A DNA stretch of 64,000 bases. Source: an uncultured bacterium (GTDB lineage Bacteria; Electryoneota; Electryoneia; Electryoneales; Electryoneaceae). Of the stretch, positions 2,409 through 64,000 are shown in pieces. A model generated the notes under the pieces. That model saw only the letters and a program-made list of their open reading frames with translations. It did no database searches and was not told where the DNA came from. The stretch spans positions 6,097-70,096 of the forward strand of contig CAZKGR010000018.1 of the NCBI GenBank assembly GCA_964552465.1, given 5' to 3'. The position numbers and the translations under genes were made by a program. The first letter of the stretch is position 1, and every line of letters begins with the position of its first letter.

Positions 2409-2436
2409 GAGTCTGGAGACTGGAGTAAGGAGCAAA
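2409..2436. repeat. Degenerate heptamer tandem repeat, 4 units
   Basis: gagtctg gagactg gagtaag gagcaaa, just after the stop codon at 2405. Confidence 0.55.
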
Positions 2437-2441
2437 ACAAC

Positions 2442-2470
2442 ACAGCCACGGACGTTCATCCGTGGCTGTT
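2442..2470 (+). terminator. Intrinsic terminator between convergent genes
   Basis: acagccacgga-cgttca-tccgtggctgt (11-bp stem) followed by tctct; A-rich flank on the other side. Confidence 0.75.
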
Positions 2471-2515
2471 CTCTATACCTCAAACTGTGCTAAGGAGATG
2501 AGATACCGTAATTGA

Positions 2516-41831: not shown

Positions 41832-43643
41832 TTATTGCGTAGAAGATGTAGAATCGAGCAATTCAAGCAATGAGCTTTCACCTGCAAGCAGCTCGTCTGG
41901 TGTGCCAATCTGCGCAACGCGCCCTTGGTCCAAAACAAGCACACGATCGGCCGCTCGAATTGTCGAGAGGCGGTGACTGATTAAAACTGCTGTACGACCG
42001 TTGAGCACGTTTTGTAAACGTGAAACGAGCGCGTGTTCGCTCTTGACATCAAGCGAGCTCGAAGGTTCATCAAGAATGACTACCTGTGAGGGTCTGACCA
42101 GAGCACGTGCGAGTGATAAGCGTTGCCACTGACCCTCGCTGAGATCGACGCTATGATCGAACCAGGTACCGAGCAAAGTGTCATAGCCGTGCGGCAAGCG
42201 GGGGATGAACTCGTCAACGCCTGCATCTTGGGCCGCTCGTAAGATTGCTTCCTCTGATGGCTGATGAGCGGTGTCACCGAGGGCGATATTTTCGCGCACT
42301 GAAGCGTGAAACCTGGCGAAGTCCTGGAAGATCACACTGTACAAACGGCGCAACTGATCCGGGTCGAAGTCACGAAGATCATGTCCATCCAGCGAGATAT
42401 TGCCAGATGTCGGGTCATGGAGCCGTGTCAGCAACTTAACGAGAGTTGTTTTACCTGATCCATTTGCACCAACGATGGCGAGAACTTCCGATGGCTTCAG
42501 ATCGAAAGACACATCCTGCAGCGCCCAGTCCTGGCGGTTCGGATAGCGGAAGGACACATTTTCAACCTTTATCCCAGTGATTAGGTCAGTGGGAACGGCT
42601 GCGGGAAGTGGTGGTGCTGTGATCTGAGGTTCACAGTCAAAGAACTCGAACAGGTTGCCGAGGAACAAGTTGTTCTGATACATGGCCGCGACACCGGTAA
42701 GAATTCGCTGGATCATCGAACCGCCTCGCGCCAGACCCTGAATTACAAGCACCAGCGAACCGATAGTGATCGAACCAACTACCGCATGCCACGATATGAA
42801 TGCATACAATCCGAGAATCACACTAGCGGAAATCGTCTTTGCAATCAATTCAAACCATGACTGCCGTGAGACAATATTCAGCTTTTCCTGCCGCAGTTTG
42901 TCCCGTTGCTGTTTGAACCGATCGCTGAACAACCCACCAAGACCGTAGAGGATCAGCTCTTTTGCGTAGTAAGTGCTGGTCAACACCCAGCTTGAATAAC
43001 GGGCTTGCCGCTCATCCTGGGTACGGCTGCGTTCCCATGCATACCAGCGACGTGAGTAATGCAAACGAATGAAGACGTCTGGCAGAACGGCAATAACGAG
43101 CGCCGGTCCGAGCACCCAATTAACCGAGATCAGCAAACCCGCCACGCCAGTGATCGCGATCAGGTTCTGAAACAGGCTGCCTGCCTCCTGGATCAAACGT
43201 CCGGGACGGGACAAAGCTTCCCGTTGAGCGCGGTGCAAGCTGTCGCGGAACTCGCTGTTCTCGTAGTAAGCAAGCCCGACTGTTATCGATTTACGATGGA
43301 TGCTGTCAAACAGATGGTCAGTAAACTTCTGGACGAGGTGTTGGCGCAACCAACCATCAACTGTTCCCGAACTGATCAGCAGCCAATAGGTTACACCCGC
43401 AGCTATCACGTACCGCATCACCTGGCTCAATCCTTGAGTCGGGTCGGGTAGCTCGATGGCCAGCACAATACTATCGACAATCCACTTGAACAACAGTAAC
43501 TGTACCAGCGGCAAAATGCCACGGAAGATGGAGAAAATCGTGTAGGCTGTGGCCTGCTGCGGGGCGTGCAGCCACAGCATGCGAAGCAGCCGTCCGAGTG
43601 GACGTGCATTTGATGATTTGATTTGCTCAGTATCGAGTGTCAT
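41832..43643 (-). CDS. ABC exporter (TMD+NBD), peptide/RiPP-export type
   Basis: Six-TM domain; GANGSGKT, IFQDF, LSEGQWQRL.LAR, ILDEPSSSLD, ISHRLST. Confidence 0.92.
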   Translation of the reverse strand: MTLDTEQIKSSNARPLGRLLRMLWLHAPQQATAYTIFSIFRGILPLVQLLLFKWIVDSIVLAIELPDPTQGLSQVMRYVIAAGVTYWLLISSGTVDGWLRQHLVQKFTDHLFDSIHRKSITVGLAYYENSEFRDSLHRAQREALSRPGRLIQEAGSLFQNLIAITGVAGLLISVNWVLGPALVIAVLPDVFIRLHYSRRWYAWERSRTQDERQARYSSWVLTSTYYAKELILYGLGGLFSDRFKQQRDKLRQEKLNIVSRQSWFELIAKTISASVILGLYAFISWHAVVGSITIGSLVLVIQGLARGGSMIQRILTGVAAMYQNNLFLGNLFEFFDCEPQITAPPLPAAVPTDLITGIKVENVSFRYPNRQDWALQDVSFDLKPSEVLAIVGANGSGKTTLVKLLTRLHDPTSGNISLDGHDLRDFDPDQLRRLYSVIFQDFARFHASVRENIALGDTAHQPSEEAILRAAQDAGVDEFIPRLPHGYDTLLGTWFDHSVDLSEGQWQRLSLARALVRPSQVVILDEPSSSLDVKSEHALVSRLQNVLNGRTAVLISHRLSTIRAADRVLVLDQGRVAQIGTPDELLAGESSLLELLDSTSSTQ

Positions 43644-43750: not shown

Positions 43751-44644
43751 CTAACGTGAGGGTACATCAAGGTATGGCTGCAGTATTTCCCAGAATGGAT
43801 CCTCGAGGGTCAAGTCAAGTAGAATCCCCCTCAACGAACGTGAGTACCGTTCAGATTGCTCAAATACTCGTTTCCGAACTTGAGTGAGATCTGGAGGAGG
43901 CAATGATGTCCAGGCTCGACGGAATATTTGTTCGCACGCTTGCTTCAGATAGTTCGACGTGGCGGCGTGCTGCAATTGTTCGAGCGAAACCTTCTGCGCC
44001 TGACGAAGGAAGACAACAGTATGAATTGGAATTGCGGTTGTTGACGGCCAAACCTGGTCGATATTGCGTAATACCAGATCACTCCATGTCGGCATCGGAT
44101 GAGCGAACAACCCCGCATCAGTCTGCACCAACCAGCACTCATCATCGTTGACCGTTTCCCATTCGGACGGGAGACGTCGCATCGTAGTAGATTTGCCAGT
44201 CCCTCCCGGCGCGGCAAAGAGAACACCTTTTTCACCATACACACCCAGCCCGGCATGGATAGGCAGATTCCCAGCCCGCAAAAGAGCAGGGTAGAGGGGA
44301 TACTGACCGTACCACATACTCATCAACCAATCCTTACGATTGGAACGATCTGGAACCTCATAAACATGTGTTTCTGTCCCTGGGAGTGTGTACACGCGTA
44401 ATGGCCCCAAGTCGAACTCGTTGCACTGAGTTTGATTTGTTCCCAAAAAGGTCAGGCAGGCATCAAGTTCGGTATGCGTGACAACGTATATAGTCCATTT
44501 ATCGGCCTGGTTATTTCCTTCCTCTGACGGCAGAGAGAGAACCGAAGCAAACTTCCGTAGCCAATCAATCCCAGCTGAAACGGCTCGAAAAGTCCAGCGG
44601 GTTTCATCAGCAAGAACAAGTGAAACCGACAAATCAGTCGTCAT
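43751..44644 (-). CDS. SynChlorMet cassette ScmC-like protein (HPr kinase-like P-loop)
   Basis: L.LADETRW N-terminus; PIHAG, GVLFAAPGGTGKST..RRLP..W....DDEC.LV, AHPMPTWSD; adjacent to a PqqD gene. Confidence 0.75.
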   Translation of the reverse strand: MTTDLSVSLVLADETRWTFRAVSAGIDWLRKFASVLSLPSEEGNNQADKWTIYVVTHTELDACLTFLGTNQTQCNEFDLGPLRVYTLPGTETHVYEVPDRSNRKDWLMSMWYGQYPLYPALLRAGNLPIHAGLGVYGEKGVLFAAPGGTGKSTTMRRLPSEWETVNDDECWLVQTDAGLFAHPMPTWSDLVLRNIDQVWPSTTAIPIHTVVFLRQAQKVSLEQLQHAATSNYLKQACEQIFRRAWTSLPPPDLTQVRKRVFEQSERYSRSLRGILLDLTLEDPFWEILQPYLDVPSR

Positions 44645-44915
44645 GGTAAATAAGTTTGTTCTGAATCAGGCTGTCGATGAACTCCTCAACATCCTGCTTG
44701 AGTGTGGTTGGAGGGGGAACAAAAAAAACCTGCAATTGCGCGATGATTTCTTCAGGGGTTATCCCCTCATGAATCATGGCCCAAATGCGGGTTCCAAGAC
44801 TGTTTATGCTGTAGGCCCGGTCTGTTCCGGGGTGGTACAACACTCCACCGCTAGTTGAATCATCGCGAAAAACAACGGAGGATTCTGTCACGAGGACAGA
44901 AGAGTTACCTGGCAT
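44634..44915 (-). CDS. PqqD family RiPP recognition element (ScmD-like)
   Basis: VVFR......GVLYHP.T...YSIN.LG..IW.MI......EEI..L........L..DV.EFI..L....LI. Confidence 0.88.
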   Translation of the reverse strand: MPGNSSVLVTESSVVFRDDSTSGGVLYHPGTDRAYSINSLGTRIWAMIHEGITPEEIIAQLQVFFVPPPTTLKQDVEEFIDSLIQNKLIYHDD

Positions 44916-44930: not shown

Positions 44931-45101
44931 TTACAACCACTCAAACGAATCCGACTCCTGCTGTTGATCCTGCCTCTTCTCTTCACCATCCCCCGGATCG
45001 TTCTGCGCCGGTGGGTCCGGTTCAGAAAACCCATGGGCAACGTCGAGGAGCAAGGAAAGCTCAGTAAGCAGGGGTTTATCATATCCCACGCTTTTCTTCA
45101 C
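44931..45101 (-). CDS. Putative RiPP precursor peptide, 56 aa
   Basis: AGGAGG RBS 5 nt before GTG 45101; MKKSVGYDKPLLTELSLLLDVAHG-FSEPDPPAQNDPGDGEEKRQDQQQESDSFEWL; YxxPxL RRE-binding motif; 15 nt upstream of the PqqD gene. Confidence 0.75.
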   Translation of the reverse strand: MKKSVGYDKPLLTELSLLLDVAHGFSEPDPPAQNDPGDGEEKRQDQQQESDSFEWL

Positions 45102-45702
45102 GAGTGCCTCCTGATACAATATCAATTCGAATTCGATGGTGTGAAAGTCGTGCACTAAGAATTGTAACACGCATCAGCACCGAATATGCTGCTAAAATAT
45201 CCTCAATGCACCCCCTAAACACACCAAGAGCTCTCATCTCGGGTGATTTCGCGACTGACAATCGGACCATTGAAAATTGTCGGTGCATCAGATTTTTAAA
45301 AATCCGACATCTGCTCTTCAATAGCAATGACGCAGATCACAGGAAACGTCGATCAAGAGATGTAAAGAGAGGCATGGCCTCAAACGATGGCTCGAGGGTA
45401 CTCTGGAACAATTTCAGAACTATCTTGTTGTGCTTAAGCTCTGGACCGAGTACATTCCGTTGGATGTCGGCGCGAATTTCTAATACTTACTCCGAGTCCG
45501 AAGAATTTGATGCCGATAATGTGTTCTCCAACACAGCAAATTGCAATTCAGGCATGTAGATTTTTGGAATCTTGCTTGAGTAAATTGATGCGATGCACCT
45601 TGTCCGATGTCCAGTGACCGATAACTACATGATGACGGAGTACACTATTTCGTGTTCTACGCGTCGTTTACCTGCTGTTCTAACAATCAGGGAGACTTTA
45701 TC

Positions 45703-48102
45703 ATGAGGTCTTCGATTCTCTTTGTTAGCATTTTGGTCGTCTTCGTTTTGCTGACAGCTATTCCTGTACAGGCACAGATCAACAACGCCGACTTTGAAAA
45801 CTGGACGGGTGATAATCCAGATAGTTGGACGATCGTTGAAACTGGCAACAATGAGGTCCGCGAGGACGCGTTCGCGTACAGCGGATCAGCTTCTGCTGAG
45901 TTGGTGTGCCCGTCATATTCACGTCCGCGATTGGTCCAGTATATCAATGTTGAGGCGAACGAGGCGGTAACGGCCAATTTGTTCGTGTATGACAACGAAG
46001 CATCATACACACGCTTGTATCTAAAAGTGTATGACAATGACGGATTGCTGCTTCTTCAAGATTATGACCAGTCTGCAAACTCTGGAAGCTGGCAGGCGTT
46101 AAACGTTGATCTTGTAACTCCCGCAAGTTCCGCGGAAATCAAATTTGAAGTCATCTATTTCTATGACACAGGCACCCCAGGAACGCAGACGAACTACATC
46201 GACTTTGCAGAAATCACGATTAGCGTTCCGACATTTGCCAACATCGAAAACCCTGGTTTGGAAGATTGGACTGGTGGCGTACCTGACAGCTGGACGGTGA
46301 TCGAACCCCTTAACAGCGATGTTCAGCAGGAAACTGGCACTGTCTACGAGGGTTCGTATTCTGCTTCCGTTACCTCGACAGCCTATGTACGTCCACGAAT
46401 GGTACAATTCCTGGGTGTGTATCCAGGTGACACGGTTACCGGACGTGTACAGATTCTTGATAACGATCCTTCTTTGCCGCGCCTGTATCTGAAAGCTTAC
46501 GACTACGATGGTACACTGATTCAGCAGAGTTTTGCATCTGCGACCAACAATGCTGCATGGCAGAATGTTGAGACAACGTTGGTAACACCATCAACAACGG
46601 CTTATGTCAAATTTGAAATCATCCAATTCTACAACACTACGTCAGGTGGTACACAAACCATCTATGTGGATGCTGCCGAGTACGAAGTAGACACATACAC
46701 ATTCGATGTCAGTACTGCCAACCAGTGGTACTTCATAGGTCCTCCAGTGGACATAACTGACCAGGGGGATAGAAACGCAGACCAGCTGTTCAGCGATGAC
46801 CTCGGCGGAGCGAGTACATCCTCCACATGGGTCATGAGCCGTTGGAACAACACGACTCAAGCGTATGAGCGCTTTGGTAATGGTGATGGCGATCCGCTCA
46901 CGGAACCGCCAGATATTGAACCGGGTATTGGATACTGGTTTGTTCAGGATGTGGAACCTGGAGTTTCCGATCCCTGGCTGGACATCACCAGTGCCCAGAC
47001 ATCAACTGGTGCTCCTTCTTCAGACGTTACCCAAGACATCATTGGGCAGACTGGAGGCGAGAACGGTGTCACCATGTTGGCAAACCCGTTCTACGGTGAT
47101 TTCACTGTCTCAGCGTCGGTTCTGACCGCAAGTGGTTCTCCCTCTGACTGGGGGCAGGACGGAATAAACTCAAACATTTACACGTGGGATGGGTCACAGT
47201 ATCTCATCCAGCTTGCTGAATCTGCCACACTTGGCATGTGGGACGGATTCTGGGTTGTCAAAACGACCACGGGTGATGGTGACATTACATTTACCTACGA
47301 TAGCGGTGACCACGGTCCAGTCATTGATGACTACTTCGTTGAAACCGGTTGGGGATTGCAGCTCTGCGTTGAGTCTCTGGATGGTACATATCTTGATACC
47401 TACAACGAGCTCGGAGTCCGTGATCGTTCGTTAGATGGCTACGATAGCTACGATGCCTTCGAAATGACGCCACCGAGTTCCAGATATGTCAGCCTTGCGT
47501 TTACCCATGAAAACTGGGATGAAGGACGCCGGTTTGCACATGACTATCGTGACAAAGAATTTGATCGGGATAGCTGGAACTTTGAGATAAAAGCCCGTCG
47601 TCTGCCGAACAGCTCATTCAGACTCTATTGGCCTGCGTTGCAAGGAGTCCCAGGAAATATCGAGTTCGAACTGTACCGTTACAATCAACAGAGTATTGTT
47701 CGAGTTGGACTATTGAGTGAGCTCGATGACTACGTCTTCACGGTCGGTGATGAGGATGTTGAGGTCGTTAGATTCCGCATCATTGCCTTAGATCAAGACC
47801 TGGTAGCCAGCGTTGACGAACCTGGTGCTGAACTACCGGTTGAGTTCGGCATACATTCAGCCTATCCGAATCCGTTCAACGCGCAGATATCCATCAAAAT
47901 GGGACTGCCGGATGCGGGTAACGCTACAATGACGGTGTTTGACATTCTGGGTCGCGAGGTCGCCAGCTTACATAACGGACACTTGAACGCTGGTTCCCAT
48001 ACGTTCACGTGGGAAGCGAAAGATCACGCGTCAGGCATCTACTTCCTCCGCTTGTCGTCTGGTGAACAGGTTTCGCATCGCAAAGTGACTCTACTTCAGT
48101 AG
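45703..48102 (+). CDS. T9SS cargo with two tandem CBM4/9-like jelly-roll domains and CTD
   Basis: Signal peptide (VQA|QI); two ~150-aa repeats (N..FE.W.G..PD.W ... YID.AE); AYPNPFNA...SGIYFLRL...RKVTLLQ. Confidence 0.8.
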   Translation: MRSSILFVSILVVFVLLTAIPVQAQINNADFENWTGDNPDSWTIVETGNNEVREDAFAYSGSASAELVCPSYSRPRLVQYINVEANEAVTANLFVYDNEASYTRLYLKVYDNDGLLLLQDYDQSANSGSWQALNVDLVTPASSAEIKFEVIYFYDTGTPGTQTNYIDFAEITISVPTFANIENPGLEDWTGGVPDSWTVIEPLNSDVQQETGTVYEGSYSASVTSTAYVRPRMVQFLGVYPGDTVTGRVQILDNDPSLPRLYLKAYDYDGTLIQQSFASATNNAAWQNVETTLVTPSTTAYVKFEIIQFYNTTSGGTQTIYVDAAEYEVDTYTFDVSTANQWYFIGPPVDITDQGDRNADQLFSDDLGGASTSSTWVMSRWNNTTQAYERFGNGDGDPLTEPPDIEPGIGYWFVQDVEPGVSDPWLDITSAQTSTGAPSSDVTQDIIGQTGGENGVTMLANPFYGDFTVSASVLTASGSPSDWGQDGINSNIYTWDGSQYLIQLAESATLGMWDGFWVVKTTTGDGDITFTYDSGDHGPVIDDYFVETGWGLQLCVESLDGTYLDTYNELGVRDRSLDGYDSYDAFEMTPPSSRYVSLAFTHENWDEGRRFAHDYRDKEFDRDSWNFEIKARRLPNSSFRLYWPALQGVPGNIEFELYRYNQQSIVRVGLLSELDDYVFTVGDEDVEVVRFRIIALDQDLVASVDEPGAELPVEFGIHSAYPNPFNAQISIKMGLPDAGNATMTVFDILGREVASLHNGHLNAGSHTFTWEAKDHASGIYFLRLSSGEQVSHRKVTLLQ

Positions 48103-48126
48103 TCACTGGCGAAAGCTTGAATTTCC

Positions 48127-48159
48127 AAACGCTCATCCCAACTGGGGATGGGCGTTTTT
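48127..48159 (+). terminator. Intrinsic terminator
   Basis: aaacgctcatccc-aactg-gggatgggcgttt plus further T's, after the 48102 stop. Confidence 0.85.
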
Positions 48160-48277
48160 CATCATTTTCGTGTATTGCGCAGCGTCACACATGTATCTAT
48201 TGTATTTTACGAACTTAAGGTAACTATACTCAGACTCATCAGAAGATTCCAATTACGTATGTGTGCATACATGAGGT

Positions 48278-49927
48278 TTGCCAGATATGTTGAACGGTCA
48301 ATCTGAAACGAATATGAGTTCAATGAAACTCACCTATAACGGCGGCAGCATGCGCTCGCTGTTTCGCCAGGGGGATCGTTTACGTGTACAGCCATGTCTG
48401 GTGACCGATGTCCGGGCTGGGGATGTCATTGTTTATCTAAATCGTTCACGAGACAGACATGTTGTGCATAGAGTAATGCACATTCTGTCTAGCGGCTTTG
48501 AGACTAGAGGTGATGATCGAATTACTGCTGACAAGGAACTGGTAATACCCGATCAGTTTGTCGGACGTGTGATAGCAGTCTGGAGATCACATTCATGGAA
48601 ACCTGTACGGGGAGGTATAGTTGGATTAATTCGGTCAAGACTTTGGCAGTCAATGAGAATGGTGCATCATTCTGTACTCACACGCTCCATACGCATGGAG
48701 AGTGCAACTTCACCTGTTTCCAACCCTGATGTCATTTTACTCCCACATTGGCTTCTTCAACTGCTTCAATCTTGCCTCAGAGGTACTCTACAAAGTGAGA
48801 TAAACAAGATTCCAGAGAATGTCTGGCCAAGTCTGGTGGCGCTTGCATCCAGACAAGATCTTGCCCCTTTTATTTATGCCAATCTGAATCAGCAGGATGC
48901 GTTGGACGAGCTTCCAGCAAGCGCACAAAAACAACTTCATCATTTGCACCAGAATTCTTGGATTGCGCAGCAACGTTTAATGACTGCACATACTTCCATC
49001 ACACATGCTCTGAATGAAGCAAGTATCGACAGCATTTCTCTAAAGGGATTGTGGTTTGCGCACTCGCTCTACGAGGATCCAGCATCTCGCCCGATGGTTG
49101 ATATTGATCTGCTTGTCCGTCCTGAACAGCTGACTGCAGCGACCGATGTGTTCATCGAGCTGGGATACGTCTCTATCCAGGAACATGATTCCGTTTCGCT
49201 TGAAAAAGAAATCTGGCTGTATCATCCGGAACGTCGAATCAAGGTTGACCTGCACCAGGATCTGATACCCTATTACTCAGATCTTACGTGGGATACATCA
49301 GAATGCTGGACTCGTGCCATACAAGCGGATTTGGAAGGACAACCGATTCAGGTGTTGAGTCTCGAAGACCAAATGATGCATATAATCCTTCATGGTTCCT
49401 TCGAACACCTGTTTCAGCCGCATAAAGTACTTCTGGATGCATACCTGGCAATTCAGACCTGGGGAGCAGAGGTTGATTGGAAGCGAGTCAGGGAGAGGGC
49501 AGAGACTATTGGACTAGGGCATGCACTTGACCTAATGGTTGTAACTCTACGACGTGCTTTCGACGATCACAGCATGACTCTTCCTGCACCAATCAGACAT
49601 GTTCCTGCTGACGGAGTTCGCTGGTTACTCTATACCGCGCCGATTCTCCATCCACCATCGTTGCTTCATCTGTATGCCGGACGTGACTACTTGTTCTACG
49701 TCCTGAAGCGTGCTCGCCAACTGGCGACCTTCCTTCGAAGTGGGGTACAGTCTCAAGGTGGGATACAGGTTACTCGTTCTAAACCAAAAATGGTTGCCAA
49801 AACTATTATTAGACGGATGTTCACGTTGAGTGGGCTGACCGCAGGATTTCTTTATGGCTCCATTCGCCACCCATCCCGCAAGCAGTTTATCTTCCTCAAG
49901 CTGCTCAATTGGCTGAGTCATCGCTAA
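48278..49927 (+). CDS. Fusion of S24/S26 peptidase domain and RiPP-associated nucleotidyltransferase (NTP_transf_5-like)
   Basis: N-terminal GGSM..F..GD.L.V...GDVIVY...VVHRV......ETRGD; C-terminal W..L...A..Q.L.P, LKG...A..LY.....RPM.DIDLLV, VDLH. One uninterrupted frame; start uncertain (48278/48287/48314). Confidence 0.82.
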   Translation: MPDMLNGQSETNMSSMKLTYNGGSMRSLFRQGDRLRVQPCLVTDVRAGDVIVYLNRSRDRHVVHRVMHILSSGFETRGDDRITADKELVIPDQFVGRVIAVWRSHSWKPVRGGIVGLIRSRLWQSMRMVHHSVLTRSIRMESATSPVSNPDVILLPHWLLQLLQSCLRGTLQSEINKIPENVWPSLVALASRQDLAPFIYANLNQQDALDELPASAQKQLHHLHQNSWIAQQRLMTAHTSITHALNEASIDSISLKGLWFAHSLYEDPASRPMVDIDLLVRPEQLTAATDVFIELGYVSIQEHDSVSLEKEIWLYHPERRIKVDLHQDLIPYYSDLTWDTSECWTRAIQADLEGQPIQVLSLEDQMMHIILHGSFEHLFQPHKVLLDAYLAIQTWGAEVDWKRVRERAETIGLGHALDLMVVTLRRAFDDHSMTLPAPIRHVPADGVRWLLYTAPILHPPSLLHLYAGRDYLFYVLKRARQLATFLRSGVQSQGGIQVTRSKPKMVAKTIIRRMFTLSGLTAGFLYGSIRHPSRKQFIFLKLLNWLSHR

Positions 49928-50009
49928 AATCTGGTGAACTCGGTGACCTATCAGGAAAGTTCTCAGTGCACTATATGGTTACAGTGCATGTTTCATTTCA
50001 TAGTAGCTG

Positions 50010-52253
50010 CTATCCATCCCCAGGTTGGCTTGCATTAAACCGAAGCTCAAGCCGGAAAGTCCGCCCAGGACGTATCGCCTGACCCCAATCCAGATGTTCC
50101 TGATATGCACTATCCAGCAGGTTTTCGATGCCCAGACGGAAGACAAGCATGTCATTGAGTTTCCATTGACCTTGAACGTCGACCACAGCGTAGGCAGGAG
50201 AATGGTTTTCGCCATTTATAATTGATGGATTGTCTCTTTCAAGCGACCCACGTAACCGGAGATTTCCACTAAACGTTAATCCTGTCCAGCGTAACATCAT
50301 ATGACCGCGCAATGGTGAGAGGTTCGGGAGGTTATCATCCTCATCCATTAATCTGCCATGCTGCAGGCTGGCTCCAGCAACTATCAGCCACCTCGAGTAA
50401 ATTGGCTGCAACAAGGATATTTCCATCCCTTGAAGGTAGGCGCGAGAAGCATTGATATACTGTTTCCAACCATTTGCGAATGGAACGGTCACATCAGATT
50501 CAGCAATCTGACCATAGATGTAGTCGGCAAACTGATTGTGGAAAATGGAAACATCAATTCGTGAAGCGTTTACACGAATACTATTTCGCCATTCCCACTG
50601 ATGGGACTGTTCACGCTGAATGTGAGGATTTCCAGAGTACAGGAATCCGTCCGAAGCCACATATAAGTAGTAGCCATATGCTTCTGTGGAATTTGGGGCC
50701 CGCATTGCATACGCATAGCTGAATCCAGTTTCGATCATGCTGGAAATTTGCCAATCCACTCCGAACGAACCACCCGTCAGTGGATCATTTCGCGTGTCCG
50801 GGGCTGACGGATCAGACAACCTAAGTTGCTGAATGCCTTGCTCGTCGTTAGCACTTGTGTTGACATAATCCTGCCGGAATGAACCATGAAACTTATATGG
50901 ACCACGCTGATGCTGCAGACTGAACCACGCACCTGCTGACGAGGTCTGTACATCTGGCCAGGTTACGAGATACATCTCGGCAGATCCATCGGGGTACATC
51001 GTCATATCTGCGAATTGCCGTGTTTGAAACGCTTCGAGTCTCGTCAGCACTTGCCAGCCAGAAGCAGGACGGTGACTGGATTCGATAGTGCCACCTGATG
51101 TTCTGGTCCAACCCGGCATATCCATATGCATGCTCATCAGCAATTCGGTCCGAGTTGCATCATCCATCCAATGATCCACACGGTTGTGATATAAAGAAGC
51201 ACTCAGTTTCTCTATCCAATGCGCAGGTTGCTGAGCGCTCCAACGAGCTGAACCAGCCCTGAAACGTGCATATCCAACGTCCATTGGTAGAGCAGCGTAT
51301 CCCATGTCCCAGGCATCATCCGTCTGAACCAGCAGATCGAGCTGTTGTCGTTGAGTTAATCCAACTCGAACTGTTCCATAAAGGTTGAGTTTCTCATGAC
51401 CGGAGAACGGTTGTGTCCCTTGAGGAGTGCGATAATTACCGGCTTGCTGGTAAGCTGCCCTGAGTCGGTAGGAAATGTGAGATGAAGAACTGCCCAAATA
51501 CGCACTGCCGCGGGTTGATGCGAGAGCGTCAGCGTAAGAAACCGAGGCTCCATAATCAAGTCGCGAGTTTTCAGACAGTGGCTGGGAAACATGATTAAGA
51601 TTGATACTACCCCCAACCATGGCGCCATCTCTGGTATCAACGGCACCCATGCGAAGGGTCGCCTCGCCTAAAGCATCCAGATCAACATAGCTGGTTGCAG
51701 GATCCATTCGATCTGTACAGGCCCCATGAACTCGCATTCCATCCACGAGCAATAGTATCTGACCACCATTCATTCCGCGAATAGAAGGCTCTTGACCAAA
51801 TGCGCCTCGCCGCATCAAGCTTATTCCTTCCACTGATTCAAGAGCTTGTTCAGTGGTGGATATGCCCGTTTGGTAGCGATTAAATCTGAAAGACTCCATG
51901 TTCACGGATTCTCCCAGTACCACAACCTTTTCCAGCTCAAGTCCTCGTATCTGCAAAGCAATTTCAATATCATCACGAAGCTGAGCAGAGTTCAGAGTTA
52001 GTGGCTTGTACCCAAGCAGCGAAAAAGTGACTTGATTCGATGCAGCAGGAAATCTAATCCAGAATTTTCCATCAGAATCAGAGACTGTCCCCCTCGCGCA
52101 TCCGTCAATCATCAGACCGACATGCGCGAGGGGTTCGCCAGTATCTGCATCTACTACTCTTCCACTAACGTGGAACTCGTTTGCGATTAGTGCAGGCGAG
52201 TAGAGTAACAGAAACACTGAAACCAATAGAATATTTCGGATGTTTAGTGGCAC
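50010..52253 (-). CDS. TonB-dependent copper receptor (OprC/NosA-like) with N-terminal carboxypeptidase-regulatory-like domain
   Basis: RRGAFG.EP.IRG, DGMRV.GACTDRMDP.TSY (CxxxM), Met-rich LLMSMHMDMPG, ENLLD..Y.EH, PGR.F.L.L. Confidence 0.85.
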   Translation of the reverse strand: MPLNIRNILLVSVFLLLYSPALIANEFHVSGRVVDADTGEPLAHVGLMIDGCARGTVSDSDGKFWIRFPAASNQVTFSLLGYKPLTLNSAQLRDDIEIALQIRGLELEKVVVLGESVNMESFRFNRYQTGISTTEQALESVEGISLMRRGAFGQEPSIRGMNGGQILLLVDGMRVHGACTDRMDPATSYVDLDALGEATLRMGAVDTRDGAMVGGSINLNHVSQPLSENSRLDYGASVSYADALASTRGSAYLGSSSSHISYRLRAAYQQAGNYRTPQGTQPFSGHEKLNLYGTVRVGLTQRQQLDLLVQTDDAWDMGYAALPMDVGYARFRAGSARWSAQQPAHWIEKLSASLYHNRVDHWMDDATRTELLMSMHMDMPGWTRTSGGTIESSHRPASGWQVLTRLEAFQTRQFADMTMYPDGSAEMYLVTWPDVQTSSAGAWFSLQHQRGPYKFHGSFRQDYVNTSANDEQGIQQLRLSDPSAPDTRNDPLTGGSFGVDWQISSMIETGFSYAYAMRAPNSTEAYGYYLYVASDGFLYSGNPHIQREQSHQWEWRNSIRVNASRIDVSIFHNQFADYIYGQIAESDVTVPFANGWKQYINASRAYLQGMEISLLQPIYSRWLIVAGASLQHGRLMDEDDNLPNLSPLRGHMMLRWTGLTFSGNLRLRGSLERDNPSIINGENHSPAYAVVDVQGQWKLNDMLVFRLGIENLLDSAYQEHLDWGQAIRPGRTFRLELRFNASQPGDG

Positions 52254-52267
52254 AGATTATTCTCAGG

Positions 52268-52516
52268 TTAAAACTCGAATGCGTAAACGATCTGCCCCAA
52301 TTCTACTTCTGAGGCGTCGAAAAAGGTGAAAGTGATTTCCCAGTCACCAGTCATACTTAATCCAACGACTCCCTGATATCGGCCATTACCCACACCAACA
52401 GGTGCCACATTCCCTTCAGAACCGTGTCCCATGGATGGCATCAGGGTCTCGATTTCGGTGGTCAAACCGTCTACGTTCGGAAAGCTCATCATGGATTCTT
52501 TGGCGCCGAAAAGCAA
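52268..52516 (-). pseudogene. C-terminal YtkA/FixH-like domain without signal peptide, probable gene remnant
   Basis: KESMMSFP...MPSMGHGS..N..PV..GNG.Y.G.V.LSMTGDW. An in-frame TAA sits right before the TTG; only ~20 nt from the nosY stop. Confidence 0.55.
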
Positions 52517-52537
52517 TTATCTCGGAATCAATCTTGT

Positions 52538-53362
52538 CTACACATCCTGCTTCCTGAACAGAATGATCGAGGCGAGGATTGGAAGCACAATCCAGGCCAC
52601 CAATGACGCATATCCGATCAGGGTTGCAGTGGTCTCTGATCCGGTCATCTTGATCAATGTCGCGCCTGCCGGTCCGAAGAGGTGCGGCCCGCCGACAGCC
52701 AGAAGTGAGAGAACTCTTGTCAAATCTATCGGATTGAGCAGAAGCCCGACCAGCAGGATGATCTTTAACGCGGACGGTGTGAAATAAAGAGTACTGCCCA
52801 ACATCAGGGTGCCGTATAGCACTTCGAAAAACAACCACACTCCTAACGCAATCCCAAAAGCCACCTGACGTCTGGATGACAGCAACGCGATTAATACAGA
52901 TAACGCAGCAAAAACCACACTCAGCAACGTTGAATGAAGCACGACTTCCAGGTAACGAAGCGCGCCATCAGTTCCCACGCTAATCGCGGTTATCGCACCC
53001 GGTAATCCAAAGCCCAGAATGGACGCGGCGACAATTGTCATAACCAACCCGAGCAATTTTCCCAATAAAACCTGATCGCGGGATATTGGTTGAACGACAA
53101 GAAACTCCAAGTATTGTCGATGTGCGAGAAAGCTGAAAACTCCCACTATCAACGCAAATAACGGCAGCATGAAGCCCGACAGATTTACCAGACTGGCGGC
53201 GGTGCGAATAAAATCCTGTATTCCCACATACCCTGAGGTGACCATTCCCAGATAGGCGATGAGCAGGGTCAACACTGTAAATACTATCGCAAAGGTCAAC
53301 ACCCAGCGGTTGCGAACGTTGATCAGGAATTCCTGACGAGCAATGAGGAGTAGCCCATTCAT
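52538..53362 (-). CDS. nosY: ABC permease NosY
   Basis: IARQEF....RNRW, QPISR..VLLGK..G, LNP.D..R, six TMs; nos context. Confidence 0.88.
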   Translation of the reverse strand: MNGLLLIARQEFLINVRNRWVLTFAIVFTVLTLLIAYLGMVTSGYVGIQDFIRTAASLVNLSGFMLPLFALIVGVFSFLAHRQYLEFLVVQPISRDQVLLGKLLGLVMTIVAASILGFGLPGAITAISVGTDGALRYLEVVLHSTLLSVVFAALSVLIALLSSRRQVAFGIALGVWLFFEVLYGTLMLGSTLYFTPSALKIILLVGLLLNPIDLTRVLSLLAVGGPHLFGPAGATLIKMTGSETTATLIGYASLVAWIVLPILASIILFRKQDV

Positions 53363-54108
53363 AGTTGCCCTTCCTCATCAGTGTGTGCTCCGGCTACACG
53401 TATCATACCATAACTAAATCCAGTTTCATCCACTATTGGAAATCCAGCGCCAGGTAGCGTCAACAGCAGCCTGATTTCAACCATCTCGTCTGCATCGGGA
53501 AGCGTTAAGGCAGCCATGTTCGAGTAACCGCGAACCGACAGCACTTTACCAGCGAGTTCAGGTTCGTATGCGAGGCGCAGCAGCAGCAAATTCCCTTTCT
53601 CCGCTTCGATCAGATCCGGTTGCATGCCGACAGGGGACAGGGAGGCTTCAACGATCAGATCAGGATTTCCTCGCAGCGTCTGAAACCCTATCCAATCGGT
53701 GACGACCTCATCGTCGTATGCTGAAAACGAGTCTGCCGCATCGGTCGATGAAAAGCAAACAACCTGTCCATTCATCACGGTCGGAACGTGGTTCGTCAAA
53801 ACCATCACCACTGAGTCCGCCGAAACAAGCGCGGACGTGTTGTAGTCCGCCAAGTAGATGTCTGAGTCACGTATGACGAAAGACTTGGGAAGAGATTCAA
53901 TGTGTCGAAGCATGCACTTGGGCGAGTCGTAGGTGAGGAACTCACCCCCGACCACCATCCCACTCGCATGATTAACCTGATCGATGTTCATGTTGCAGGT
54001 ATGGCAAACATCAATTCCCGAATAAATTTGAATTCTCGGTTCTGATGCGCAACCAGCCAGCAGGATGGCGAACACGACCACGAGAAATGACTGTTTCATG
54101 GAATTCAT
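53359..54108 (-). CDS. nosL: NosL copper chaperone lipoprotein with ~110-aa C-terminal extension
   Basis: Lipobox LAGC; D.CHTCNMNI, YDSPKCM, VPTVMNG..V.F. Confidence 0.82.
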   Translation of the reverse strand: MNSMKQSFLVVVFAILLAGCASEPRIQIYSGIDVCHTCNMNIDQVNHASGMVVGGEFLTYDSPKCMLRHIESLPKSFVIRDSDIYLADYNTSALVSADSVVMVLTNHVPTVMNGQVVCFSSTDAADSFSAYDDEVVTDWIGFQTLRGNPDLIVEASLSPVGMQPDLIEAEKGNLLLLRLAYEPELAGKVLSVRGYSNMAALTLPDADEMVEIRLLLTLPGAGFPIVDETGFSYGMIRVAGAHTDEEGQL

Positions 54109-55052
54109 GTGCGCTCCAGGTCTTCCTTTGATGTGAATTGGTCAGACAACAGTGAATCCCAATCAGGATTTTCGGTACGGAACTCCTCAATCTGTCCGCC
54201 TGCTGCTTCAATGGCTTTGATCACATGCAGACGCTGCTCAGGATTAGCACGGAAGGACATTCGGTAGCCGTTCTGGTCTGTTAATCTCGCGCCAGCTTCA
54301 CAGGCTGCAGAGATTAATTTCTCTGATGTCTGCTGAAGTACGAGGTGGACCTCCGTTTCATTCTGGACGGCTTCGTAAAAGTCAGGCACAGATTCAACCG
54401 TAGCAATTTTACCGTCGTTCACAATAGCTACTCGATCCGCCAACTGCAGAGCATCTCTAATGATATGCGATGTAAAAAGTATGGTTGCGCCCCGACCTTT
54501 AAGCTGTCCAATCAACTTTCGAAACTGTTCAGTTCCAAGTGGATCAAGGTTCAATGTTGGTTCATCCAAAACGTAAAACGGAACTTCAGGCAGGAAGCAA
54601 ATAGACAAGGCTAATCGTTGAATCATCCCACCCGAATACTCCTGTACACGACGATCAGCGGCATCCTGCAATGAAAAGAAGGTGATCATTTCTTCGACAC
54701 GATCAGCCTTACAATCCCGCAGTTCCGCAGAGAGGAACAGCAATTCACGAGCGGTCAGCATTCCGGGAAAATCAATGCGCTGTGGTAAATATGAAAGAAC
54801 GTGTTTGATCTTATCGACTTGTTTCCGAACGTTCATTCCAGCGACTTCGATCGTCCCGCTAGTCGGGTGGATTGCACCCACAACTGCACGTATGATTGTC
54901 GATTTACCACCGCCATTTGGCCCGAGCAATGCAAGCGCCTCACCCTCAGACACATCCAGGTCGCTGGGTTTTACTGCATGGATCTTCCCAAATCGTTTTT
55001 CAAGCGACTTTATTCTCAGATATGGCATATCCTGGTCTGTTCCCGTCTTCAT
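54105..55052 (-). CDS. nosF: ABC ATP-binding protein NosF
   Basis: GPNGGGKS, YLPQR, YSGGM.QRL, LDEPT..LDP.G, TSH; between nosD and nosL. Confidence 0.88.
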   Translation of the reverse strand: MKTGTDQDMPYLRIKSLEKRFGKIHAVKPSDLDVSEGEALALLGPNGGGKSTIIRAVVGAIHPTSGTIEVAGMNVRKQVDKIKHVLSYLPQRIDFPGMLTARELLFLSAELRDCKADRVEEMITFFSLQDAADRRVQEYSGGMIQRLALSICFLPEVPFYVLDEPTLNLDPLGTEQFRKLIGQLKGRGATILFTSHIIRDALQLADRVAIVNDGKIATVESVPDFYEAVQNETEVHLVLQQTSEKLISAACEAGARLTDQNGYRMSFRANPEQRLHVIKAIEAAGGQIEEFRTENPDWDSLLSDQFTSKEDLERT

Positions 55053-56473
55053 TTGCGCCGTCTCCCAAGCCTGCCCACACTCATCAATCCTCCAAACAAG
55101 CCAAAGCTCACCACAACGTACAGGACGGCAGCCGAATGATTCTGATCACCAAGTTCATCTAACTCTTCCCACGGGACAGCCGAATTCTCTATCGGGCGAA
55201 TGACCGGTTGTTCGTCAACAGCTTCACCAAACTTCAGAATTGGCAAGGTCCTTTCCGCTATCTCGAGAATTGCCGCAGCAGGGCTCAACAGATAGTAACG
55301 TACTTCAGGTACGCTGCCCTCCATCACCTGGAATACGTTCTGAATATCAAATGGAATTTCCCCGATTCCATCACTATCCAAATCATAACCGTCGTAGCTA
55401 CTCCAGTGATTGCCACCATCTGAATCTGACCAGTTTGTTTCGCGGTCGGTCACATCAACAAGTAGTTCACTCAAATTGTTGATGAAATTATTGGATGCGA
55501 ACACATTCCCATCCGACCCACCATTCATCTGGATGGCCAAGTCGTTATCAACCACATCATTACCGACGATCATATTCTGACTGCTATTGTTGACGAAGAT
55601 TCCTCGGCTGTTATCATAGATCAGATTATCATACGCGTAGGTCTTATCCATGGACTGATACAAGATTCCGTATGCCCGGAATCCACGACAATGAGCAAAG
55701 ATGTTACGTTCAAAGAGGATATTGTGCGAGTACATTAGTGCCGCGCCCGCGACGTTCAGAATGAAAGTGTTGTCCTCGAACGTGTTGTAATTGGAGTACA
55801 TGTAGTGAAGGCCATAGCGAACATGATGAATCTTATTGTGTTGAATGTCTGTTGAGTCTGCGAACGAGAAATAGATCCCGTCTCTCACATTTAGGATTTC
55901 ATTGTTCCGAACAAGGTTGTTCTTGGAGTACCAGAGGTGAATTCCATTCCCACGATCCGATTCAATCAAGTCTAATCGACCTTCGATACGGTTGTTTTCG
56001 ATTATTGTACTATTGCCCTGCTTTACATAAATACCGTGAAGCGGCCTGGTGACCTGGCAATTTCTGATCACGACAGAATCAGCTTCAACGAGTATAGCAG
56101 CATGATCTTTGGTCAGCCGTTCTCCCGCTTCAGATATGTGCAAACCATCCAAAACAGCACCCGGGGCAGTCAGGTGGACAACATGACCCACGTAACCACC
56201 CCGGATGTGTGGTAGATCAAAACCAGTTATTACTACAGGTACATCAACAACGATCTGCTCCAAGTATTCACCTGGAGCCAGCCACACAGTGTCACCTGAT
56301 GCAGCTGTACGGATAGCAGAGGAGATGCTTTCGCCGGATTGAACGGAAATTCGCGCGGCTGTTCCATAGGTTGGAACCATCAGAACTGACAACGTGATGG
56401 CTACAGCCAATTGCATAACTCTCAGCCGGTGGAAAGCGCAAACTCCATTCATGAATAGCGATTTCCTCTCCAT
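55049..56473 (-). CDS. nosD: Nitrous oxide reductase maturation protein NosD
   Basis: Right-handed beta-helix (CASH) repeats; RGNGIHLW, RDGIYFSF, VRYGLHYMYS, GGNHWS.Y.G.DLD.DG.G..P. Start uncertain. Confidence 0.92.
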   Translation of the reverse strand: MERKSLFMNGVCAFHRLRVMQLAVAITLSVLMVPTYGTAARISVQSGESISSAIRTAASGDTVWLAPGEYLEQIVVDVPVVITGFDLPHIRGGYVGHVVHLTAPGAVLDGLHISEAGERLTKDHAAILVEADSVVIRNCQVTRPLHGIYVKQGNSTIIENNRIEGRLDLIESDRGNGIHLWYSKNNLVRNNEILNVRDGIYFSFADSTDIQHNKIHHVRYGLHYMYSNYNTFEDNTFILNVAGAALMYSHNILFERNIFAHCRGFRAYGILYQSMDKTYAYDNLIYDNSRGIFVNNSSQNMIVGNDVVDNDLAIQMNGGSDGNVFASNNFINNLSELLVDVTDRETNWSDSDGGNHWSSYDGYDLDSDGIGEIPFDIQNVFQVMEGSVPEVRYYLLSPAAAILEIAERTLPILKFGEAVDEQPVIRPIENSAVPWEELDELGDQNHSAAVLYVVVSFGLFGGLMSVGRLGRRRK

Positions 56474-56480
56474 TACAGGC

Positions 56481-56978
56481 TCATCCAGCGATTCTGCGTA
56501 ATTCTGAATCGACCATGGAATTGGTTCGGACGCCAGCAACACCTGTTTTTACCAGCAGCTGCCAAACTTCTTCCATATCGAGGAAGAGCTGTTTGTCGAA
56601 GTTGCCAGCAGCGCGACGTGTCTTGCAGTCTTCATAAAGTGTCAACGCGGCTGTCAGCTGAACGACGGTATCATCCCACTCCTCGTGAAGTGTCGGGCTG
56701 AAACGGGTACCGTACTGTTCAAATCCTGCTGTTATGTAAGCAGCGATAGGATTGATCACGTTCAGCACTTGCAGGATCTCGATGTCTTTGTTATGAACCT
56801 TGGCTTCCCAATCGGTGACCGAAGACACGTTCATCGGCGCGGGAATTTCAAGCGCAGCAGGTGTCTCGTAAGTAAGAGTAGGAAGCTGTGATGCCGATTC
56901 CTGCGGGGCATCAGCTTGCTGAGTACCGCAGCCCACAAGCAGGCCGAATATCAACAGAAGCAATGTTAATCGAAGCAT
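56481..56978 (-). CDS. Hypothetical helical lipoprotein in the nos operon
   Basis: GGGAGG RBS before ATG 56978; lipobox LVGC; all-helical sequence; no recognisable family. Confidence 0.75.
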   Translation of the reverse strand: MLRLTLLLLIFGLLVGCGTQQADAPQESASQLPTLTYETPAALEIPAPMNVSSVTDWEAKVHNKDIEILQVLNVINPIAAYITAGFEQYGTRFSPTLHEEWDDTVVQLTAALTLYEDCKTRRAAGNFDKQLFLDMEEVWQLLVKTGVAGVRTNSMVDSELRRIAG

Positions 56979-57012
56979 GTAACCTCCCTGTCTGGGGGTA
57001 ATTGCGTAAACT

Positions 57013-57636
57013 TCACGCAACAGATTTTTTTTGCCAGGAGAAGTACAAGGCGGCCAGAAGGCTAAGTCCAAAAACGAGAAAGAAGTATGTACCCAACGCC
57101 GGGTATGACCATACTTCAAACTGGCCGACCAGTTTGTAACCAAACACAGGTGGAGTAAACGGATCCACGGTCACTGAAGCCCTAGGGTCCAGATTATGCC
57201 CGTACTGGTATAGCTTGTACCAGAAGCTCCAGAGTGAGTAGATGGCGAAATAGAGCGCGATTACGATAACATCTACGATAGAACCGACTGTGCCGATTGC
57301 CGCCGCACGCAACGTCATCACCGCAATCAACCCAATTACCAATGGAATCCACTTAAGCTCAGTAAATTCTTCCGCTTTCAGCTCCGCCATCCCGATGTAG
57401 TGATTGAGGACGTTGATCTCGGTAAGATCGTTGCCATCATCACCACCAATCAGGTTGTGGCTGTAAATGTACATGTCCAGACCTTCAGGGTACTGCTGGG
57501 CCCAGAAATTCATGTGCCACAAGGGAACAAAAAAAGTCGGGATCAGAGACAGCGCCGCCAATAACACGAGCAAACGGCTTCGTCCAGACAGCGGCTTGCT
57601 GACGAATGTTGTGATGGCCGCAAATAGTGTGGACAT
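57013..57636 (-). CDS. nosB: Clade II nos membrane protein (NosB-like)
   Basis: P.W.M...A.QYPEGL.M.I, .EIN.LNHYIGM, LY.YGHNLDP.A...V..F.PP..G..; four TMs; directly after nosZ. Confidence 0.8.
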   Translation of the reverse strand: MSTLFAAITTFVSKPLSGRSRLLVLLAALSLIPTFFVPLWHMNFWAQQYPEGLDMYIYSHNLIGGDDGNDLTEINVLNHYIGMAELKAEEFTELKWIPLVIGLIAVMTLRAAAIGTVGSIVDVIVIALYFAIYSLWSFWYKLYQYGHNLDPRASVTVDPFTPPVFGYKLVGQFEVWSYPALGTYFFLVFGLSLLAALYFSWQKKSVA

Positions 57637-57699
57637 GATCACACCTGAGTTGATCTGCCCGGCGAGTTTGGCTAGCTCGCCGGGCAAGAATGAAACAAC

Positions 57700-59601: not shown

Positions 59602-59674
59602 CCTTCCGCCTCCCAATGTTTACTATCTTCTGCGTTCACTGTTTGTCGAAAAATGGTACAGACTCATCTATAGA

Positions 59675-60892
59675 CTACTCACTACTACTTATCTGGTCCT
59701 GATTACTCCTGTTCCTCACGATGTCGTATGCCTTGTTGATTTTATCAACAGCTTCCCACTTTTCTTCGTCCGTCAGCGGGATCTGACTATCGAGAATAAT
59801 CTTCATCGTGCCTGTTGGATCAAAGAGGAACTCTTCCACTGTCTTGTTGAACCGAGTTCGGACATCATCTGGTGCCCAGGATAGATCGGGTCCTTTATTG
59901 GTGGGAGATTCGATGTCGAACGCTTCGACACTATGGCAAATGAAACAGGAATGCTCGAAGAAGAAAGCACCGTCACCGTCACGCATCTTGCGCTCACGTT
60001 CGAGTTCTTCAGCAGTCATTTCGTCAAAGAGCTTAACACCCGGCAGGTATGCCCGAGGCAGATCCGCGTTTTCCTTCCAGCTCATCACAAGCATCGACAA
60101 GGCTATGGCGTCCCTGGTCTGGAAATTCATGTCCGGCATGATCGTTCCCGGGACAATGGTTTCTGGCGATTTGAAGTGTTTGATGTGCCAGTTGAACACC
60201 GTCAGCTGCTCAGAGACGAGATTCGAAAAGTCGTATCCTTCAGGGTGTTTATCACCTTCGTGACTCAGGTCAGGACCAAGAATTCCGCCATCTTCGTTAA
60301 CAATGTGGCAGACCTTACAACCCTTCTGATGGAGCAGGTTTTTGCCACGATTGATGAAATCTAAACCAGGCGTACTACGTTCGTATCGATGGCAGTAATT
60401 GCACTGGATCTCATGCATGGGAACGGGATCCCGTGCATCATACTCAGATCCTATGATTGAGCTGAGTAGTGGCTCTTCCCAATGGGTGATGAATCCGTGT
60501 GCCTCATGAGCAGTCAACGCATATCCTTGACCACCGTGACAAATCGTGCAACCATACTCTTCCAGTGGGTGATCAGCGAACAACTCCAAGTCTGGATGTG
60601 TTGCCCAAGGCTGCTCCATGTCTTCAAGACCCGGCCAGGTAATACCCTGGTGACACGTGATGCATCGATCGACGCGGTCCAGTTCATCAACCCAGATCTG
60701 CTGAATACCATAGGATATGGAGGTAGCATCAATGTCGCCGAAGTTCTCAGCGAGGATGAAACGAAACTCTTGTTGGTAATACTTCCACTCCGGAACACCT
60801 TCGCGCACATACACAGCGCCAATGGCCACAACCGTGATCGCTGCTGCAATCAGAAGCAGGAAGAGTTCTTTCTTGGGGATTGGTTTCCTCAT
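59675..60892 (-). CDS. Membrane-anchored pentaheme cytochrome c (c subunit of a Rieske/cytb complex)
   Basis: N-terminal TM; CITCH, CTICH, CNYCH, CKVCH, CFICH. Confidence 0.9.
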   Translation of the reverse strand: MRKPIPKKELFLLLIAAAITVVAIGAVYVREGVPEWKYYQQEFRFILAENFGDIDATSISYGIQQIWVDELDRVDRCITCHQGITWPGLEDMEQPWATHPDLELFADHPLEEYGCTICHGGQGYALTAHEAHGFITHWEEPLLSSIIGSEYDARDPVPMHEIQCNYCHRYERSTPGLDFINRGKNLLHQKGCKVCHIVNEDGGILGPDLSHEGDKHPEGYDFSNLVSEQLTVFNWHIKHFKSPETIVPGTIMPDMNFQTRDAIALSMLVMSWKENADLPRAYLPGVKLFDEMTAEELERERKMRDGDGAFFFEHSCFICHSVEAFDIESPTNKGPDLSWAPDDVRTRFNKTVEEFLFDPTGTMKIILDSQIPLTDEEKWEAVDKINKAYDIVRNRSNQDQISSSE

Positions 60893-60899
60893 CTCTGCC

Positions 60900-63999: not shown

Positions 64000-64000
64000 G

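Follow-up and report, generated by a model that had tools for sequence, protein, structure and literature searches.

The locus and its fusion gene

We analyzed a stretch of 64,000 nucleotides (nt) from an uncultured bacterium of the family Electryoneaceae (contig CAZKGR010000018.1 of assembly GCA_964552465.1); the window below means this whole stretch at its full length. On the forward strand, at 48278..49927, lies a gene that encodes an S26-type peptidase domain and a nucleotidyltransferase in one chain. We refer to it as an LppS-LppN-type fusion after two enzymes of the linear polyphosphorylated peptide (LPP) pathway of Bacillota. Upstream of it are a gene for a protein secreted by the type IX secretion system (T9SS) and, on the opposite strand, an operon for a small precursor peptide, a PqqD-family protein, an HprK-like kinase and an exporter. 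The fusion gene is an uninterrupted open reading frame of 549 codons when counted from TTG 48278 (residues are numbered from this codon), and immediately before it the frame ends at a TGA (48272). Translation probably begins at ATG 48287, with GAGG 10 nt ahead of it, which gives a protein of 546 amino acids (aa), the same as database cluster P0001 that begins at Met4.

An earlier note on this DNA, made from the letters alone, had described the gene as an in-frame fusion and had asked whether a frameshift or an assembly artefact joins two genes. The fusion is a genuine single gene. Over positions 48100-50000, the Logan contigs of four separately assembled marine metagenome runs from one study match the window with 0 mismatches and 0 gaps at 11-29x word depth. 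Fusion orthologues with a single open frame of 541-555 aa are present in five other assemblies at 41-61% identity (61% in L001, a Joint Genome Institute metagenome; 45% in G003; 41% in the metagenome-assembled genomes (MAGs) GCA_020444425.1 and CAXXKJ01), and cluster P0015 is another full-length fusion relative at 50% identity. Ser24, His64, Asp79, Asp80, Asp85, K256-G257, D275, D277 and D324 are invariant across the aligned fusion orthologues, and the motifs LKG, DIDLL and KVDLH are unchanged in all of them. An AlphaFold2 model built with 30 sequences (mean predicted local distance difference test score, pLDDT, 86.8; predicted template modelling score, pTM, 0.71) shows a beta-rich domain at residues 16-109, followed by a long helix (113-141) and a disordered, low-confidence linker (139-148) that separate the two domains (48614..48724, forward strand), and then a helical nucleotidyltransferase body.

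The peptidase domain

Residues 16-112 (48323..48613, forward strand) are assigned to an S26B peptidase domain of the SEC11/SipW/LppS type. NCBIfam TIGR02228, the model of archaeal-type signal peptidase I, covers residues 16-99 with E=2e-13 and 50.5 bits in a search with the whole protein, and the isolated domain matches it with E=1.5e-14 and 54.1 bits (cut-off 51.85). A PDB sequence search with the domain returned only human SEC11A and SEC11C at E ~1e-4, and a word-index search with it returned no homologue. The Foldseek matches for the N-terminal domain are SEC11A (7p2p_A), SEC11C, SpsB and LexA, with 4n31 also listed. The family match and the SEC11A/C alignment agree with the earlier assignment to the His-containing archaeal or endoplasmic reticulum type. 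The Ser-His dyad that had been read from the sequence stands in part: its Ser (in GGSM) and His (in VVHRV) are present and conserved, but the dyad is not bare, since Asp85 in GDDRITAD completes a triad. Ser24 (48347-48349), His64 (48467-48469) and Asp85 (48530-48532), all on the forward strand, line up with the catalytic residues of SEC11A/C, and in the aligned homologues the Ser is found in 142/142, the His in 150/150 and the Asp in 149/150. Judged from these alignments, the catalytic set of the domain is a Ser-His-Asp triad.

The highest 19-residue Kyte-Doolittle mean in the whole fusion protein is 0.98, compared to a usual transmembrane threshold of ~1.6, and hydropathy along the whole chain revealed no transmembrane segment and no signal peptide. 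Because of this low maximum, and because the stop codon directly upstream leaves no space for one, the protein has no membrane anchor and is predicted to be cytoplasmic, in agreement with the earlier expectation. The S26B boxes with the catalytic Ser, His and Asp are thus present while the S26B membrane anchor is absent. SEC11A/C, archaeal signal peptidase I and Bacillus SipW (S26B) have the fold and the Ser-His-Asp residues in common with the fusion domain, and the putative cleavage site Ala-x-Gly of the precursor discussed below carries small residues at -3/-1, as the signal-peptidase rule asks. Those enzymes, however, sit in the membrane by an anchor, have their active site outside the cytoplasm and cut Sec signal peptides, whereas the domain here lacks an anchor and is predicted to rely on a recognition element for peptides that are ribosomally made and then modified post-translationally (RiPP recognition element, RRE).

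The nucleotidyltransferase domain

Residues ~150-549 (48725..49924, forward strand) comprise a complete PF14907 (NTP_transf_5, LppN/PsmN-type) nucleotidyltransferase. The Pfam match covers residues 181-428 (48818-49561) with E=3e-46 and, together with the invariant motifs and the fold matches, upholds the earlier view that a complete nucleotidyltransferase lies in frame with the peptidase. The transferase half aligns from its start with the stand-alone transferases of relatives. In Foldseek the C-terminal body matches ANT(2'')-Ia (target template modelling (TM) score 0.70), LnuA, MenT1 and TM1012, and a PDB sequence search with this half gave no meaningful match. The marks of a pol-beta-fold nucleotidyltransferase (hG[GS], DxD and a third carboxylate) are found as K256-G257, D275/D277 and D324; Asp275 and Asp277 (49100-49108) and Asp324 (49247-49249), on the forward strand, are predicted to bind metal.

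The gene cluster and its precursor peptides

The reverse-strand operon begins with a 56-aa precursor peptide (44931..45101), recognized by its translation, its orthologues and its motif geometry, which consists of MKKSVGYDKPLLTELSLLLDVAHG followed by the predicted core FSEPDPP...ESDSFEWL. Next to it is a PqqD-family RRE (44634..44915, reverse strand; PF05402, E=7e-13) that is LppB-like and lasso B1-like: its top NCBIfam matches are lasso PqqD chaperones, with a weak ScmD-like match too, and in the PDB it matches TbiB1 (E=2.7e-7) and PbaB1 (9x90; 0.026). A ScmC/HprK-like kinase resembling LppK, with the P-loop GGTGKST, follows at 43751..44644 on the reverse strand (TIGR04249, 147.9 bits, cut-off 125); a PDB sequence search with it gave no meaningful match to HprK structures. 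The last enzyme is an MsbA-like ABC exporter resembling LppD (41832..43643, reverse strand), for which TIGR02204 and TIGR02203 are the top matches. Between the precursor operon and the fusion gene lies the T9SS-secreted protein of 816 aa (45652..48102, forward strand), which has a Por_Secre_tail match. The same gene set, including T9SS gene(s) and a peptide, surrounds every fusion orthologue. The downstream flanks differ, with nos genes in the window and L001 and GH130 and sugar genes in L002-L004, and the genes farther upstream of the cluster encode SurA-type peptidyl-prolyl isomerases. Downstream of the fusion gene, positions 50010-64000 encode a TonB-dependent receptor of the copper type and a nos cluster of clade II (NosL, NosD, a NosZ-like propeller/cupredoxin protein and cytochrome b/Rieske proteins). 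None of these genes is related to the peptide cluster, nor are they conserved beside it in L002-L004.

Two other cluster types were considered and rejected. A lasso peptide cluster would have a B2 peptidase, and none (PF13471) was found in the genome, which is 96.6% complete; the sole Asn-synthase homologue (PF00733) of the genome is on another contig, C2. As for the SynChlorMet cassette of TIGRFAMs/NCBIfam, what it has in common with this cluster is the ScmC match above the TIGR04249 cut-off and the weak ScmD-like match of the PqqD protein, but no radical S-adenosylmethionine/SPASM genes (ScmE/ScmF) were found among the neighbours scanned and the precursor has no Cys; the SynChlorMet name is a model match here, not the system actually present. 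Our literature search returned nothing relevant on PF14907, on SynChlorMet, or on S26 together with PqqD.

Small open reading frames directly 5' of PqqD in ten loci share the leader motif [Y/F]xxPx[L/I], which starts exactly 18 residues before a conserved AxG in all ten precursors. AxG occurs as AHG, AKG, ARG, AQG, AVG or ATG; next comes an aromatic residue, replaced by Gln in three precursors, and then a Pro-rich acidic core with Ser at position 2 in eight of the ten. Leader cleavage after AHG, which the earlier note had put forward, is supported, though not proven, by the small residues at -3/-1 that match the signal-peptidase rule; the fixed spacing from YxxPxL is plain in the ten precursors, and the cut itself is placed there as a prediction.

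Several other loci show variations of this arrangement. In L007 (251-562), YEKPIV stands exactly 18 residues ahead of AKG in the precursor of a PqqD-S26 cluster, and a Cys/Gly-rich core of ~80 residues comes next, which argues that the leader grammar is common to very different cores; that cluster also holds ScmC, a 1126-aa S8 peptidase and an ABC pump. In L025 (G005:C128, 4981-13273), two consecutive units of T9SS gene, precursor and PqqD are followed by one ScmC-S26-ABC-nucleotidyltransferase set, and a single enzyme set may serve two precursor/RRE pairs there. Two genomes of a single genus, represented by L022 (7615-8469) and L026 (frame 2, upstream of 1858-2259), have a PqqD frame that extends 5' into a hydrophobic region of ~200 aa that is apparently membrane-embedded, and the precursors of these two loci have a different core, QYLPDEP...STPPWP, without Ser2.

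Separate genes and other fusions in relatives

We searched for relatives in six frames in 40 related genomes, and among these the fusion is confined to the genus of the window itself (G000-G003). Other genera of the family and phylum encode the two domains in separate genes within PqqD/ScmC operons, as the earlier note had expected, with a peptidase of ~205-250 aa and, in most cases, a transferase of 405-430 aa. The operon order is precursor-PqqD-ScmC-S26-nucleotidyltransferase or precursor-PqqD-ScmC-S26-ABC-nucleotidyltransferase, so that the peptidase and transferase genes are adjacent or parted only by the ABC exporter gene, and wherever they adjoin their reading frames overlap. The stand-alone peptidases (L019-L029, and L006 at 1098-3026) bear a C-terminal domain of ~80 aa (ELQLxLG...WxIRPPFxLxID..LP) that is lost from the window's fusion. 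In L024 (G023:C142; 9447-10681 and 7244-7387), the nucleotidyltransferase is split over two frames and the T9SS gene shifts frame near its 3' end; such breaks may stem from decay or from sequencing errors in this MAG. We propose that the window fusion originated within a single genus from a pair of genes that lie side by side and overlap in several relatives, with loss of the peptidase C-terminal domain.

An exhaustive HMMER search with the peptidase domain against 1.8 billion cluster representatives gave 1614 hits at E<=0.001. The architectures of the 148 closest of these are 138 stand-alone peptidases, 4 PqqD-S26 fusions (P0030, P0049, P0075 and P0158; 348 aa), 4 ScmC-S26 fusions (P0058, P0060, P0109 and P0118; about 500-540 aa) and 2 S26-nucleotidyltransferase fusions. 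The stand-alone forms have a median length of 214 aa, their domain begins at ~residue 15, and only one has an N-terminal hydrophobic segment. They include P0039 (662 aa), an S26-methyltransferase protein whose second domain was detected by the Pfam scan only. P0033, an S26-nucleotidyltransferase fusion of 642 aa, lies directly after a ScmC gene on an unrelated high-GC metagenome contig. It retains the C-terminal peptidase domain and lies on an unrelated contig, which points to at least two independent S26-nucleotidyltransferase fusion events. The peptidase is thus fused to each pathway partner in different lineages, which is classic evidence that the partners act together.

Comparison with the LPP pathway and lasso-type systems

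The biology is less new than the earlier note had assumed, since the unfused pathway was characterized in May 2026 as LPP in Bacillota (Popov et al., Nat Commun 2026; PMC13381572). LPP clusters consist of the precursor LppA, the HprK-like kinase LppK, the discrete RRE LppB, the archaeal-type signal-peptidase homologue LppS, the MsbA-like pump LppD and the NTP transferase LppN, and have no cyclase (PMC13381572). LppK adds up to four phosphates to core Ser3; leader removal by LppS requires LppB, each of the variants S29A, H68A and D93A is inactive, and the unphosphorylated precursor is poorly cut (PMC13381572). LPP was stated to be restricted to Bacillota, where the clusters are associated with capsule loci, and no LppS-LppN fusion was mentioned (PMC13381572).

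All five LPP-defining enzyme families are matched in the window: TIGR02228, PqqD, TIGR04249, NTP_transf_5 and TIGR02203/4 (compared with Supplementary Data 2 of PMC13381572, where the 'HprK kinase' of LPP clusters is most often represented by TIGR04249, with TIGR04352 in the same group). [quoted passage not shown] LppS (Supplementary Data 1) and the window domain are 23% identical across 93 aligned residues (E=5e-7), S29/H68/D93 being in register with S24/H64/D85, and LppB is 21% identical to the window's PqqD protein. Compared to the LPP precursor consensus YxxPxVLxHQxIxFETxxS, YxxPxL and a Ser near the core start are present while the HQxIxFET part is replaced by ...D-x-A-x-G. In the lpp cluster of Paenibacillus alginolyticus, LppS and LppN are two separate proteins rather than one chain; the five enzyme families, the anchorless triad peptidase, the lack of a cyclase, the leader motif YxxPx[L/V] and a Ser 2-3 residues past the cut are in common with the window. 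The LPP core is basic and Gly/Asn-rich whereas that of the window is acidic, and capsule loci take the place that T9SS cargo genes have here. The host, a T9SS-bearing marine bacterium, is outside the stated LPP range (Bacillota/sequence similarity network cluster 1), a difference that concerns the clade and not the mechanism.

Another parallel comes from paeninodin-like lasso clusters of Firmicutes, in which, as far as a later account of the work goes, a putative nucleotidyltransferase at times forms a fusion with the cysteine leader peptidase B2 (Zhu et al. 2016, via PMC8498205). In that account leader peptidase and PsmN-type transferase share one chain in a cluster with an RRE and an HprK-like kinase, as here, but the B2 peptidase is a transglutaminase-like cysteine protease and the product a lasso formed via a cyclase, whereas the window has a serine S26 peptidase and no cyclase. 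In the pseudomycoidin cluster, the HprK-like kinase PsmK phosphorylates Ser and PsmN is needed for one or two hexoses (+162 Da) on the phospho-Ser, a DxD mutant being inactive (PMC6993621). The target of PsmK/PsmN is the C-terminal Ser of the lasso peptide, on which PsmN may act directly or indirectly.

Association with a T9SS-secreted protein

In most loci, homologues of a ~380-aa module of the T9SS protein (residues ~356-735) lie either directly 5' of the precursor or next to the cluster, sometimes in two or three copies per locus. Its invariants are W..S.W, PP.F.PG.G.W, ANP, W.GFW and D.YD..DA.E (window, L021, L022, L024, L025, L029, L001, L003, L004 and L027). In 41 genomes, 17 have the module together with the peptidase/transferase genes, 2 have the genes only, 1 has the module only and 21 have neither (Fisher p=2e-8, or 1.4e-6 at one genome per genus, both uncorrected for shared ancestry). 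The model of the module has a pLDDT of 71, and the fold search returned only generic beta-sandwich strings of immunoglobulin/fibronectin type III-like proteins with a TM score <0.35 and gave no functional hint. As an association, the T9SS link parallels the capsule-locus association of Bacillota LPP and suggests a role at the cell surface.

Proposed pathway and alternatives

Taking these observations together, the fusion is probably a cytoplasmic bifunctional maturase of an LPP-type RiPP pathway in a non-Bacillota host. We infer the sites of cleavage and phosphorylation, the sequence of steps, the transferase chemistry and the enzyme activities of the pathway here as follows. The PqqD protein would bind YxxPxL of the 56-aa precursor, and the ScmC/HprK-like kinase would phosphorylate a core serine, most likely Ser2 of FSEPDPP, the counterpart of LppA Ser3. 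The SEC11/SipW-type domain (Ser24-His64-Asp85) would cut the leader after Ala-x-Gly, 18 residues past Tyr, and the PF14907 domain may decorate the phosphorylated residue with a hexose or a nucleotide-derived group, by analogy to PsmN. The MsbA-like ABC pump would then export an acidic product of 32 residues. The putative target Ser2 is two residues from the predicted scissile bond, so that peptidase and transferase would address the same short stretch of RRE-held precursor, which offers a simple rationale for the selection of a fusion. That the two domains share one substrate had been argued from the fusion itself; we still infer this, and the second S26-nucleotidyltransferase fusion and the PqqD-S26 and ScmC-S26 fusions strengthen it.

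Several observations weigh against a bifunctional LPP-type maturase. The identity to the characterized LppS is low, at 23% over 93 residues, and the putative cleavage motif is AxG where LPP has FET (F-E-T). LppS uses an N-terminal helix to contact LppB and the leader (PMC13381572), and this helix is apparently absent here, residues 1-15 being unstructured in the model, so docking on the RRE must differ from that of LppS. In the sole reconstitution of an LPP pathway LppN displayed no activity, and deletion of lppN in the heterologous host caused no change (PMC13381572), which leaves PsmN genetics as the basis for the transferase chemistry. In the window's genus the fusion gene is on the strand opposite the precursor operon, behind the T9SS gene, and no word that we sampled turned up in the metatranscriptomes (RNA runs) that the same study produced.

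The position of the gene behind the T9SS gene invites the reading that the fusion processes or tags the neighbouring T9SS-secreted protein before export instead of acting on a small peptide. The T9SS gene immediately precedes the fusion gene on the same strand, the 175-nt spacer showed no terminator-like site, and module and cluster co-occur across genomes. We nevertheless consider this unlikely: in other genera both enzyme genes belong to the PqqD-ScmC operon and follow the small precursor, the precursor bears the RRE motif and AxG at fixed spacing, and the homologous LppS acts on a small precursor (PMC13381572). The fusion has no signal peptide, while the T9SS protein would have to leave the cytoplasm. 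T9SS cargo does so through Sec. Since the domain is without the N-terminal helix and without the C-terminal domain of stand-alone relatives, and since some S26 homologues such as SipA (4n31) are non-catalytic, the S26-like domain might instead be a docking module for the leader or the RRE, with another protease removing the leader. The invariance of Ser24, His64, Asp79 and Asp85 in all fusion orthologues, their retention in 142-150 of 150 family members and the lack of any other peptidase gene in the cluster make this improbable.

Much less credible is a housekeeping secretory signal peptidase fused by chance to an unrelated enzyme: signal peptidase I is indeed the top family match, but the domain is without a transmembrane anchor, an N-terminal hydrophobic segment is found in 1/148 of the closest family representatives, and the family sits within PqqD/ScmC operons. 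An assembly or frameshift artefact merging two genes, for which one might cite the peptidase and transferase genes that adjoin and sometimes overlap in related genera, can practically be dismissed, as the four independent run assemblies are identical and gap-free, the orthologues at 41-61% identity hold one open frame, and the C-terminal domain of the stand-alone peptidase is cleanly missing with no frameshift.

Implications

The unfused system being known already, what is new here is the fusion, the occurrence outside Bacillota, the AxG motif and the tight T9SS link. As a speculation that we hold to be rather doubtful, LPP-type pathways beyond Bacillota, in marine bacteria that bear the T9SS, might form a functional unit with a family of T9SS surface proteins: one RRE-centred complex, to which the recurrent fusions of leader peptidases to an RRE, a kinase or a nucleotidyltransferase point, would couple phosphorylation of the serine beside the scissile bond, capping of the phosphate by the LppN-type transferase and leader cleavage, and the acidic phospho-peptide, once exported, would bind to the T9SS protein on the cell surface or decorate it. 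Bifunctional maturation of an LPP-type peptide, the reading we prefer for the fusion itself, has consequences of its own. The LPP enzyme set is widespread within a distant phylum that has the T9SS, and the precursors there follow another, very regular grammar of recognition and cleavage (YxxPxL-N12-AxG). The natural fusion is an argument for the transferase working inside the RRE-peptidase complex, on a residue that lies two positions away from the cut, and it offers a compact construct for finding the missing LppN activity. The conserved T9SS partner family hints at a surface-related role of these peptides, in parallel to the capsule loci in Bacilli.

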